Source: Octopus sinensis (lineage: Eukaryota). From it: a DNA stretch of 64,000 nt. Under the pieces are notes generated by a model. It saw only the letters and a program-made list of their open reading frames with translations. It made no database searches and had not been told where the DNA came from. Each line of letters begins with the position of its first letter. The stretch's first letter is position 1. This document shows, in pieces, positions 23,213 through 51,861 of the stretch. The position numbers and the translations under genes are program-made. The DNA lies in assembly GCF_006345805.1 (NCBI RefSeq), contig NC_043006.1:53940001-54004000 (forward strand). Reading direction: 5' to 3'.

Positions 23213-23403
23213 ACCGTTGGCGATTGTTTTTTCCTCCGTCTTCCCTTCTTTGGATCTTTCCTTTTCCTATGTTTCTGATGAAGAGCTCCGCTCGAAACGT
23301 TAGACCCTCCTTCTTTCCTTCTTTCCTGAGCGTCCAATAATACTATACTTGTCCACGTCCTCGCGTTGTTGTATTTTCTCTTTGTGTTTTCATGTTTGGA
23401 TTA
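23213..23403 (+). mobile_element. ~190 bp hammerhead-bearing unit, subfamily F1 (PLE pseudo-LTR or retrozyme-like)
   Basis: Close inverted copy at 43270-43460; ends in (TA)n. Confidence 0.8.
23271..23305 (+). ncRNA. Minimal type I hammerhead ribozyme
   Basis: gttt-CTGATGA-a-gagc/tcc/gctc-GAAA-c-GTT-agac; stems I and II pair; stem III is a loopless ACGT palindrome. Confidence 0.75.
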
Positions 23404-24739
23404 ACTATATATATATTATATATATATATATATATACATATGTATGTATTTATGTGTGTGTGTGTGTGTGTGTGTGTGCGTGTGTGCGTGTGTGTGTGTG
23501 TGTGTGTGTGTGTGTGTGTAAGAGACCAAAGTGTACGTACGCTGCTATATGTTTTATATATAAAAAATACAAAACGGGACAAGAACGCAAAACATCAAGA
23601 CAGACGATACAAATAAAACAAGGATGGGTCATTCGGAGTTTTCTATTCTCAGTCGAGTTCCATATGGTTGGGAAGCAAACTTCTTACCACACAGCCACGC
23701 CTGTACCTAATGTATATATGTATATTTTATCTGTCTACTTACCTGTCTATTTATCATCTATCCATATATATATATAATATATATTAGAAGAAATAAGGTA
23801 CTCAGAAATCTTCAGAAATCTCAGAAATCTCAGAAATCACATACATACATACATACATACATACAGCCATACATACATACACACACATACACACACACAT
23901 ACGCACGCACATACACATATATATTAAATGTATGTTGTTAATTCGTCAAATTGTGTTCAAATTCACGTTTTTCTCACCAACGTGTTGTTGTTGTCGTCGT
24001 CGTTGTCGTTGATGATGATGATGATGATTGTTGCAAATATTTGATTTATCTCAAGAACATATAACAAATAAAAACAACGGCTTGAGTTTTTCTAATCAGA
24101 TTTATCGTTGAATGATTATTGGCCCAGTTTACATCAAAGGAAAAGATATCCTTCTACAAAAAAAAAAAAGAAAAAGAAATTCACTGGGGGTGTTTTCTCA
24201 TACACTTATCCTGGTTCATGTGTAAAGAGATTTGAATTCTGTCTTACGAGTAAATGAGATCATTGAGAGACGTGAAATTCTTATATATTGCTCGATGTAG
24301 ACCCACCTACATCATCATTAAAGACATCAAGATATTTCATGACGTCACCGAATTTCATTTGCTCACTGTTTGTAAATTGACATGACACCGCTTCTTTCCA
24401 GCTTCACCTACAACATTGTTCTAGGCCACGTACCCTCGCAATCGAGCAGAAATAGTAACCAAATCTCCCTGAAATACAACTCTATCAGCTAAAATAAAGA
24501 GGTACACATTGGATGACGCATTTCTAGATATGCTATATATGATAAAAATCATTTTTTTTAAAGTGGGAAGGTTCACAGCTGATACAGCTTAAATTGTAGA
24601 TTTGCTGGATTATGGCTAACCTGAGGCTAAGCAACAACAACAACAACAACAACAACAATAAAACAATAAATTTCATGGAAAGTATTTACACCTCGCTGAA
24701 CAGTGTTACAAAACATTAAATACCGTCAGTGAAATATTA

Positions 24740-25870
24740 CGTGGTGATATCAGAAAGTTCCAGGACTAATTATCTATTATATAAAATCTGTTTTGTTTGT
24801 CTGTGTGTGTGTGTGTGTGTGTGTGTGTCTTCTAGGATCTCGGGCATCCTCCATCCGATGCGCTCAAATTTGATATGTAGATAACGACGGTATCAGGGCG
24901 TGTATAAGTCTTGAAAAATTACAAAAATCGATTCCAGGTGAGAATGCGATCGATAAAGCCGTGGGAACGTGCATTTGTACGCGCAAGTACATAAAAAAAG
25001 TCTATCTTTATTTCTTCTTTTACTGGTGTCTCAAATTTAGGTTACATCAATGTTTCTCAAAGAGGATGCCTATGGGACGGTCGGACGAGTTGTTTTGAGA
25101 AAATTTGGTTTAAATGTTTGACAACTCAGCACCGTCCATTGGATGTGGGGCCTTTTGCTCGTGCTTAATAAAAACTAACTTATTTACTTAGGTTTTAACA
25201 TCATTTACTTTGAAATAGTCACCTTACACAGCAATACACCAATTACAGCATTCCTGTCACTTTTGGAATCCGGCCTGGAAGTCGTTTTCCGTAAGCGAGT
25301 CGAGGACCTTCTGCGATTCGCTCCGGATCTCGACAACGGTATTAAAACGGCGGCCTTTGAACTGCATTTTCGTCTTGGGGGAAAAGATGGAAGTCCGCAG
25401 GTGTTAAATATGGCGAATAGGGCGGGTGCAGAAGCGATACCATGTCGCTTTTGGCGAGAAATTCACGAGTGAAGAGTGGTCGGTGACAGAGTGCATTGTC
25501 GTGACGAACCCACTTCTTCGCGCTCCACAGATCCGATCGCTTTTGCCGAATGCCCTCCCTCAAACGCTTCAAAACGCCGTACTAGAACTCTCGATTGACG
25601 GTCTGAACCTGAGGAACAAAGTCTCGATGCACAATACCACATTTCTTGGGTGAATCCCGTGACAGGTCTTCCGGATAGCTCATCGTCTTTCAGAGACGTT
25701 CTTTCGCTTTTGAAGCGCCCATGTCACATGAAACATTGCATACGACCCATTGTTTCGTCTCCTTAAACTTTCCGAAGCATGCTCAATGTTTCTGTACCAG
25801 ACTTCCCAAGTTTAACGCAAAATTTCGCGTTAGTTCTTTGTTCCTGTCCATGACAAAATAGCAGACTACA
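24740..25870 (-). mobile_element. Decayed mariner with nested Helitron
   Basis: TA-cgtggtgatatcagaaagttccaggact end; transposase remnants HDNA...HPPYSPYLTPADFHLFP and GDYF; second TIR not identified. Confidence 0.8.
24773..25161 (+). mobile_element. Non-autonomous Helitron inserted at A|T
   Basis: 5' TC-tattatataaaa plus (TG)n; subterminal hairpin ccgtccattggatgtgg; 3' CTCG (CTRR variant); no TSD. Confidence 0.7.
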
Positions 25871-25920
25871 GCCTCACACGTAATCGCAAAAATACAAATT
25901 TCACAACTTTTTTTTATTTT

Positions 25921-50367: not shown

Positions 50368-50672
50368 CACGTGATCACGTGACCGACCAGGCTATCAGAT
50401 GTTGTTACACATCGCTGGTCACAATGCGCTTCACATTGTTTTAGCCTTCGAATGACGCCACCCCGCTGGCTAAGCGAGCAGGCCAACAGAAGAAAGAGTG
50501 GGAGAAAGAGTGGTGAAAGAGTACAGCAGGGATCACCGCCCCCCTGCCGGAGCCTCGTGGAGCTTTTAGGAGTTTTCGCTCAATAAACACACACAACGCC
50601 CGGTCTGGGAATCGAAACCGCGATCCTACGACCGCGAGTCCGCTGCTCTAACCACTGGGCCATTGCGCCTCC
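50368..50672 (-). mobile_element. SINE family D, tail T3, full length with TSD
   Basis: 14-bp TSD atgtatgaatatat at 50354-50367 and 50673-50686; intact tRNA-like head. Confidence 0.92.
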
Positions 50673-51646
50673 ATGTATGAATATATAAATGTCTGAATGT
50701 ACAGGTGTGTATATATGTAGATGTGTGTGTGTGTGTGTGTGTGTGTGTGTGTGTGTGTGTGTGCGTGTGTGTGTGTGCGCGCGTGTGTGTGTGTTGGAGT
50801 ATATTATACATGTTCAGTCATGTACAATATAATCCAATGAGTACGAGGCCCGTCGATGTGAAATTCTCAACTTTGAAACCTTCACAAGATCCCTCATAAA
50901 GCAATACAACAGCATTAATTTGAGGCGTGGAGAGAAACCAACAAGCGTGATTTGAAAACTGTATGCCACTTGGGCTCCTCCGCCTCAAAAATCTCTCCAC
51001 TTTTCAGCACACTTGATGCGTCCCTCCACTCTTTCTGTACACTAATTATCATGAGCAATCCTTCATCCCTAGAATACCCGCGCACAGGAATCTCCTCACT
51101 GCTTATCTCTTTCTTGCAGATTTGAACCTCCAACAGTTTTGACAGAGCGTTAACAGCATCAGCCTCCCCCGTTTCAGAGGGTCTGAAAGAATCGTGGGTT
51201 TTCCCCCTTCATCCAAACACAATAGGTAGGGAAAAAAGGACAATGGAAACCCCAAGGTGAGCCATTGCTGAAGTTCGTTTAAGGACATAACTCGCTCTCA
51301 GTATAGATCTCTTTCTCTCTCTCTTTATATATATACACATACATACATACATGCATACATACATACATACATACATACATACATACATACATACATACAT
51401 ACATACATACATACATACATACATACATACATACATGCGAGGATGTGCTTTAAGGGTGTCACGAAAGGCCTGGTTAGCGGCCCAACCTTCCGAGTTCTTT
51501 TACAGAGCTTAGAAAAACTGAAGGACAACTGCAATAAATGTGTGAATCTGAGAGGGGAATATGTTGAATAGTATCGTAATTAATTGATCGTTCTGTATTT
51601 TCTATTACCCAAAGCCAGAAATATTTCGGCATTTGTGTGTGTGCCC

Positions 51647-51861
51647 GACGCCATGATAGATCGTTAGCTCCTACATGCATTTTTTTCTCTCTTTGTTTTT
51701 CTCCTTGTTTTTTTTTTTCTGCGTATCTTTCTGTCGAAGAGCGTCGGCTCGAAACGTAAAAGACTTGTTCTATTTCTATTCCTGAACGCCATACCAAAAC
51801 ATTTGTTTGTTTGTACTCCACCTGCCATTGTCTTTTGTTTATTTTCGTAAACCTTCCCGTT
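51647..51861 (+). mobile_element. Hammerhead unit, subfamily F2 (core at 51726-51763)
   Basis: tcttt-CTGTCGA-a-gagc/gtcg/gctc-GAAA-c-GTA-aaaga; ends at (TA)n. Confidence 0.75.

Follow-up and report, generated by a model that had tools for sequence, protein, structure and literature searches.

What are the small non-coding units, each about 200 nucleotides long and carrying a hammerhead-like motif, that lie against (TA)n tracts in a 64-kb stretch of Octopus sinensis DNA? This stretch (G000:C10:53940001-54004000, from a genome of 2.72 Gb; hereafter the window) is animal DNA rich in microsatellites. An earlier note, made from its letters alone, described four full units and three fragments and took them for a separate family of short interspersed element (SINE)-like copies or retrozyme monomers, mobilised by a Penelope-like element (PLE) such as one in the same window. 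We find, with very little room for doubt, that the units are themselves the pseudo-long terminal repeats (pLTRs) of PLEs bearing open reading frames (ORFs), in two lineages, A and B, and the separate family thus falls away, though most copies are solo. That the motifs are minimal type I hammerheads of the PLE kind, PLE-mobilised, TA-targeted and very numerous is supported. The copies in the window are as follows.

23197..23406, plus strand: unit 1, solo pLTR of lineage A, canonical CUGAUGA core.
23271..23305, plus strand: putative minimal type I hammerhead of unit 1, assigned from sequence, core at 23275-23281.
43267..43463, minus strand: unit 2, solo pLTR of lineage A, canonical CUGACGA core; hammerhead at 43370-43403.
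44388..44578, minus strand: unit 3, solo pLTR of lineage B, A6U core CUGUAGA; hammerhead at 44479-44513.
51647..51862, plus strand: unit 4, solo pLTR of lineage B, A6U core CUGUCGA; hammerhead at 51726-51763.
17229..17353, plus strand: 5′-truncated lineage A copy that begins within the hammerhead, flanked by TA tracts.
18438..18465, plus strand: 5′ fragment (28 bp) of a unit of lineage B, flanked by TA tracts.
39004..39065, minus strand: 3′-terminal fragment of a lineage B unit, flanked by TA tracts.

A BLAST search of the window with the four units recovered two full units of each type and the three fragments, so that everything on the earlier list is present, with unit 1 beginning 16 nt sooner than had been claimed. 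Identity within the pairs is 92% for the A units and 77% for the B units, and a loose core pattern has exactly four matches in the window, all at the four units. The architecture is the same in each: stem I, CUGNNGA, an extra A, GAGC-loop-GCUC, GAAA, C, GUH and the stem I partner. Unit 1 has GUUU/AGAC as stem I, GAGC/GCUC as stem II and a palindromic ACGU after the GAAA; stem I is 3 bp in unit 3 and 5 bp in unit 4. Cleavage is predicted at 23301/23302, 43374/43373, 44483/44482 and 51758/51759 in units 1 to 4, the first and last as in the earlier note, and the cctga(g/a)cg motif that it placed downstream is present. Other parts of that description need qualification. The CUGNNGA formula does fit every unit, but it masks a U at the conserved A6 in both B units, and the core is canonical in only 2 of the 4 (units 1 and 2). 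The stem II pairs are kept, but stem II is invariant, and hence the pairing is uninformative. The units abut (TA)n on the 3′ side in all 4 cases (a short tract in unit 2), but on the 5′ side in just 2, one being unit 3, which has (TA)n on both flanks.

The identity of the units is carried by copies that extend upstream, which share sequence with one another and translate to PLE protein. In lineage B, the unit lies 3′ of frames with reverse transcriptase (RT) motifs, a CX4CX2C linker and a GIY-YIG domain (loci L063, L077, L079 and L068), and L095 is a near full-length element whose 3′ end is formed by the unit and whose 5′ end repeats the distal half of it. In lineage A, L098 reads, in order, (TA)n, a 5′-truncated GIY-YIG frame, a (CA)-rich 3′ untranslated region (UTR), the unit and (TA)n; the unit is 5′ of the ORF in L148, L149, L154 and L162, and 3′ of the endonuclease (EN) domain in L098, L124, L159 and L163-165. 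Linkage to PLE ORFs, which the earlier note had proposed to look for, is thus found on both sides of RT/GIY-YIG frames. Among the 150 of 14,657 candidates scored in a genome search with the L098 GIY-YIG domain, L148 and L149 each have an open frame of 1008 codons, preceded by an A unit some 250 nt upstream. Against Pfam, the 1008-codon ORF gives RVT_1 at E 0.002 and GIY-YIG at E 0.02, both below the cut-off, and a PDB sequence search gave no match. Its homologues number 615 at E<=0.001 among 8,000 candidates scored, mostly RT-marked and some GIY-YIG, and those that are named come from marine invertebrates. The RT-to-EN linker (CX2-5CxxC) reads CSRSRCNTC in L148 and CSRPRCHTC in L095. As for the copies in the window, unit 1 and the 5′ pLTR that precedes the PLE ORF in L154 share 95% identity, unit 4 matches the 3′ pLTRs of the L091 and L095 RT+GIY-YIG elements at 83-86% identity, and the copy at 17229..17353 shares its subfamily with the pLTRs of the intact-ORF elements L148 and L149. 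An inverted pLTR adjoins the upstream pLTR in 2 of 20 junction copies (L229 and L235), and L164 has an inverted pair. A (TA)3 lies at most 16 nt downstream of 81 of 91 A copies and 71 of 86 B copies, this TA being partly element-encoded. On these sequence features, linker and (TA)n targets point to both lineages being PLEs of the Neptune/Nematis type. Contigs from four sequencing runs with four organism labels cover both units, and these show no ends, strand or level. The outcome that the earlier note had set against its own reading, namely PLE LTRs always attached to ORFs, nearly describes what the units are, but solo copies predominate.

Two arrangements of units were met along the way. In L149 (G000:C1:74949500-74957500), only a short TA tract lies between a B 3′ pLTR and the 5′ pLTR of an intact A element, which amounts to an insertion of one lineage in the TA tail of the other. 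In L113 (G000:C1:9860400-9870399), two inverted A units stand 1.2 kb apart with identical 5′ flanks, which suggests an inverted duplication or an assembly feature.

If the units are pLTRs, why do most of them stand alone, and at so defined a length? To map 5′ ends, we used natural long copies as references and counted positions from an initiator-like motif (TCATTC in A1, TCAGTC in B2); the samples were unbiased, being picked by the 3′ 19-mer alone (the first 30 of 7,248 matches for A and the first 30 of 15,625 for B). Twenty-four of the A copies begin at -6..+22, while 3 start further in and 3 further out, one of the outer three being an artefact of the reference; for B, 7 begin at 0..+7, 13 further in and 10 beyond -150, with none at -7..-130. 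With wall windows set after the data had been seen, the stop rate in A is 0.052/nt at this 5′ wall versus 0.0008/nt downstream (60-fold), and in B 0.065/nt versus 0.004/nt (17-fold). Unit 1 itself starts at about +8 and ends 3′ at (TA)n. The best-BLAST copies, all of them required to extend as far as the wall, end at +1..+7 in 24 of 29 cases for B and no further out than -2 in 27 of 29 for A. Same-subfamily 19-mers have 297 genome matches just upstream of the wall versus 2,946 within the unit. The 3′ ends are fixed at (TA)n. The word that spans the junction of pLTR and 5′ UTR has 35 exact genome matches, and 19 of the 20 of these copies that were fetched run on for at least 110 nt into a common 5′ UTR. 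Such junction copies continue TTTATATACCG into the shared 5′ UTR, and therefore the first TA dinucleotides can be RNA-templated; the element sequence runs into TTTATATA ahead of that UTR.

The reading that we favour, and consider somewhat better than an even bet, is that solo units are short cDNAs primed at the end of the upstream pLTR, for which an uncleaved RNA was copied back to its start. RNA polymerase II would start at the initiator-like TCATTC/TCAGTC within the 5′ pLTR; the GIY-YIG domain would nick (TA)n; the nicked end would prime on UAUAUA some 210 nt into the RNA; and RT would run to the RNA 5′ end, the cDNA then being joined, often via TA microhomology. Priming at the downstream pLTR would yield the rarer long, 5′-truncated copies. 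With a transcript start in the upstream pLTR and priming about 210 nt from the 5′ end, run-off gives a solo unit with its hammerhead intact. Several of these steps have counterparts in other PLEs. In vitro, the Poseidon protein nicks AT-rich DNA and RT starts internally at the pLTR-ORF junction, with uncleaved RNA as the main substrate and hammerhead cleavage assisted by the protein (PMC11167929), and the Penelope element of D. virilis is described as having an internal initiator (Inr) promoter in its pLTR (PMC2377424, partial text).

Several points weigh against this reading. The initiator-like motif is short and is degenerate in other subfamilies (TCTTTC, CCTTTC, TCAGAT), and the wall is weaker in B, where 13 of 30 copies stop further inside. 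The 5′ pLTRs linked to ORFs start at -6..+22 in just 6 of 21 cases, versus 24 of 30 in the A sample (Fisher p 4e-4); by raw alignment only 4 of 19 are at the wall, and such scattered starts are not predicted by a simple run-off model. Moreover, L229 (after an internal deletion) and L235 in lineage A, and L095 in lineage B, resume 1-15 nt past the cleavage site beside inverted sequence, which may be a hint of cleavage in long transcripts. Priming by the anole Poseidon protein needs no target homology, unlike the UAUAUA step (PMC11167929). Finally, the samples are small and were drawn from the initial 12 Mb of a single contig, the exact 19-20-mer requirement favours young copies, and the two genome-wide 19-mers may represent the subfamily unequally well.

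Among the alternatives, the one that survives best, which we nevertheless regard as unlikely, is that solo pLTRs have turned SINE-like, keeping the internal promoter, making their own transcripts into (UA)n and using PLE protein in trans. A defined unit length and the same 5′ wall would be expected from this, solos are roughly a hundred times as numerous as junction copies, and non-autonomous PLE derivatives have been reported (PMC8557442 and bioRxiv 10.64898/2026.07.22.740005, both partial text). However, no solo-only subfamily was seen: 67 of 68 A solos and 45 of 50 B solos have a match of at least 90% identity among the long or ORF-linked copies, and median best identity to such copies versus among solos is 95.4 versus 95.9% for A and 96.3 versus 97.4% for B, 210 bp giving low resolution. 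Many solos begin at +8 or later and have lost the initiator-like motif, and the anole protein requires RNA downstream of the priming site (PMC11167929), which the solos are without. Less probable again, to the point of being an outside chance, is a truncation hot spot, in which RT stalls or cDNA anneals to TA at the boundary for reasons unrelated to a transcription start. The TA/TG microhomology at +8 in many 5′ junctions, the long low-complexity (CA)-rich 3′ UTR upstream and the usual 5′ truncation of PLE insertions all speak for it; yet two lineages whose flanks are at shuffle level have a common boundary, with a pyrimidine-A motif and ATG at +8/+9, and copies that pass the wall seldom end within the 120 nt beyond it (A, 1 event; B, 0). 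That solo units are what remains after the paired pLTRs of a full-length element recombined, in the manner of solo LTRs, is highly improbable: a full-length element with two direct pLTRs does exist (L095), and deletion has been proposed for the solo pLTRs of a rotifer (PMC3846280, partial text), but solo copies and ORF-linked 5′ pLTRs have different 5′ ends (p 4e-4) and tens of thousands of full-length precursors would be required against 35 exact junctions. Just as improbable, and largely refuted, is the proposal of the earlier note that these are monomers of retrozymes without long terminal repeats (non-LTR retrozymes), excised by the hammerhead, circularised and re-inserted, since for all the type I hammerhead, the size of about 200 nt and the co-occurrence with PLEs, the hammerhead lies whole in mid-unit instead of being divided between the two termini, of 99 consecutive cores 0 have a tandem neighbour within 400 bp on the same strand, a single copy of the 76 in the unbiased samples begins within -5..+10 of the predicted cleavage site, 83% of exact cores are non-canonical, and no stable fold was obtained. 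Dimers are rare (L050, and one 216-bp pair among 100 matches listed).

How many of these motifs are there, and could they cleave? The pattern CTGNNGAAGAGC-N3-6-GCTCGAAACG has 21,401 genome matches (0 for the reversed control), of which 16,523 have CTGTN, that is, A6U cores; the remainder, 4,878, is an upper bound for canonical cores. Another 7,504 exact matches have CCGAN (U4C) cores, for a total of 28,905, or one per 94 kb (A6U 57%, U4C 26%, canonical at most 17%). The earlier note was right to expect very many motifs, but it overstated their activity: the canonical core (C3 U4 G5 A6 ... H17) is in units 1 and 2 and at most 4,878 genome matches, and is absent from the 16,523 A6U and 7,504 U4C matches. 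The window is also denser than the genome at large, with 4 exact cores versus 0.68 expected per 64 kb, about 6 times the genome mean. The 3′-end 19-mers have 7,248 (A) and 15,625 (B) matches genome-wide, and 12 of 30 and 16 of 30 of such copies, respectively, also match a core pattern; capture-recapture then gives a rough 31,000 copies per lineage if independence is assumed. By a rough estimate, the family makes up about 0.5% of the genome. Because A6U and U4C are also present in ORF-linked copies (L091, L095, L148 and L149), they are lineage traits rather than decay, the direction of change (canonical as ancestral) being an assumption. Furthermore, L067, L072 and L174 hold an older-looking third subfamily related to lineage A, with a CUGAAGA core and UUU/GUU in loop II, and at least 3 further PLE-like minimal hammerheads of other families occur in the fetched loci. 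In the literature searched, no description of this family, its 5′ wall or an A6U lineage was found, though Lunse et al. 2017 and the PMC4209133 supplement may list such variants; a search on A6U in hammerheads found no precedent for its fixation across a retrotransposon lineage of 16,523 copies and returned one twister paper. Thus the scale, the dominance of A6U and U4C in successful lineages and the fixed 5′ boundary are what we did not find in the literature searched.

Between the lineages, the motif is more conserved than its flanks, as the earlier note had held. Between A and B, the motif is identical at 27 of 38 positions (shuffle maximum 0.56), versus 50% in the 5′ flank and 51% in the 3′ flank (shuffle means 0.48 and 0.50; shuffles 44-50%), the shuffle controls ignoring the relatedness of the sequences. 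One word, TTCCTGAGCG, lies 20-30 nt 3′ of the cleavage site and is common to A and B though the flanks are otherwise unalignable; the GAGC that it contains is a possible competitor for stem II's GCUC strand, or else the word could be a promoter or protein-binding element. In 16 representatives hand-picked from 78 distinct motifs, N7, H17 and loop II are variable, with no G at H17, and stem II is almost invariant. The outer pair of stem I is G-C in one lineage and C-G in the other, which is modest evidence for a selected fold, since it represents a single evolutionary event. Taken together, these features are suggestive of a hammerhead-like fold under selection in active lineages, with changes at positions 4 and 6 tolerated. 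A copy-level comparison of core and flank divergence (A, 12/398 without position 4 versus 177/3016; B, 1/165 versus 78/1324) was set aside because the flank figures mix subfamily differences and the core list was offset by one base. The folding energy of the units is unremarkable (z -0.55 to +0.70), and minimum free energy folds of monomers and homodimers contained no hammerhead fold and were not used as evidence. Rfam scans listed no hammerhead model among 150 of 229 matches in the window or among the 5 matches on unit 2, as expected, because the motifs are without helix III.

Lone minimal hammerheads are described as not cleaving in vitro, and the ACGU palindrome fits the dimer model of the same paper (PMC4209133, partial text). 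Among known variants, A6C has an observed rate constant below 0.1/min, and U4C is much reduced in vitro while tolerated in a viroid (PMC3088659, partial text). We would predict that cleavage is slow, or dispensable for solo insertions, and occurs at most in dimers or with protein help. A bolder proposal, which we offer tentatively and would put at well under evens, has two parts: the roughly 60,000 solos would be fossils of a "strong-stop"-like first step (UAUAUA priming and run-off at the capped end), and selection would have kept the hammerhead fold as an RNA element that serves the PLE protein with little or no catalysis, because the A6U and U4C lineages out-multiplied the canonical one while keeping the stems, GAAAC and the palindrome.

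The PLE that the earlier note had named as a possible driver, at 35050-35690, is a different matter.

35046..35760, minus strand: decayed 3′ portion of an element from an unrelated PLE family; tblastx finds relatives in L096, L126, L194 and L095.

This fragment has its own hammerhead-like motif (within 35046-35126; CUGACGA at 35126, with a long stem II, a 7-8 bp stem I and a longer stem III region) and ends at (TA)n. It may be Hydra-like. As driver or parent of the units it was rejected: it has no match to the parent ORF, whose best tblastn hit in the window (E 2.0) lies elsewhere, and its hammerhead-like motif is different.

Other features of the window can be listed briefly. A full-length U2 small nuclear RNA match on the minus strand at 12717-12903 scores above the Rfam gathering score (49.2 versus 46 bits) and is probably a pseudogene. 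Fragments of non-LTR elements on the minus strand at 61205-61897 and 29384-30606 (Pfam zf-RVT, E 0.002, and RVT_1, E 2e-8) adjoin long (TAA)n tracts, which may reflect R4/Dong-like microsatellite targeting. A head-to-tail duplication of a (GCT)n-bearing unit of about 282 bp lies at 59172-59540, and another abundant dispersed repeat family, SINE-like and often adjoining (TA)n, is found at 34807-35040, 39466-39697, 19906-20064 and 26458-26603.

In significance, the family is an ordinary class of transposon debris, and dispersed minimal hammerheads from truncated PLEs have been known since 2014. It does, however, offer a natural series of canonical, U4C and A6U motifs in thousands of copies each, with ORF-linked members and intact ORFs, in which the need for cleavage is directly testable, and the sharp 5′ boundary predicts the transcription start and the priming site to within a few bases. 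There are also 2 cautions for motif surveys: descriptor searches that require CUGANGA miss more than 80% of the motifs here, and motif counts are not counts of active ribozymes. Both the role of minimal hammerheads in PLEs and the origin of pLTRs are described as open (PMC7761336 and PMC8557442, partial texts; PMC11167929).

Set beside known systems, the motifs resemble the PLE minimal hammerheads described previously (partial descriptions) in having no helix III, a palindromic 15.2-16.2, an extra base between 9 and 10.1, a G10.1-C11.1 pair, a helix I of 4-5 bp and a U-rich 5′ flank, and in being mostly single dispersed motifs "probably related to truncated PLEs". They differ in number (2,000-9,000 copies there versus 28,905 exact matches here), in the 4-bp stem II and defined 5′ boundary, and in the dominance of A6U and U4C, neither of which is among the variants listed in those descriptions, where U3-A8 is given. 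Metazoan non-LTR retrozymes (PMC7761336 and bioRxiv 10.64898/2026.07.22.740005, partial texts) are likewise non-coding units of 150-300 nt with a type I hammerhead related to PLE pLTRs, but they are defined by tandem repeats and circular RNAs, and no tandem pair was seen among the 99 neighbouring cores here. Natural variants at position 6 and U4C, which are weakly active (Perreault et al. 2011, PMC3088659, partial text), parallel the cores that dominate this family. With the EN+ PLEs of the Neptune/Nematis type (Craig et al. 2021, PMC8557442, partial text), the elements share a single ORF with RT followed by a C-terminal GIY-YIG domain, the CX4CX2C linker, hammerhead pLTRs, an inverted pLTR beside the upstream pLTR (here L229 and L235) and (TA)n targets; in contrast, a (CA)-rich 3′ UTR of 1-2.5 kb or more is present here and solo pLTRs dominate, and the placement in this clade is provisional. 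Poseidon_Ac (Frangieh et al. 2024, PMC11167929) belongs to another clade, uses no target-RNA homology, whereas the element here continues into TTTATATA, and has a 30-40 nt tail that found no counterpart here, where 19 of 20 junction copies continue for at least 110 nt. Nevertheless, it too makes fixed 3′ ends internally near the pLTR-ORF junction, at AT-rich targets and from an uncleaved RNA template.

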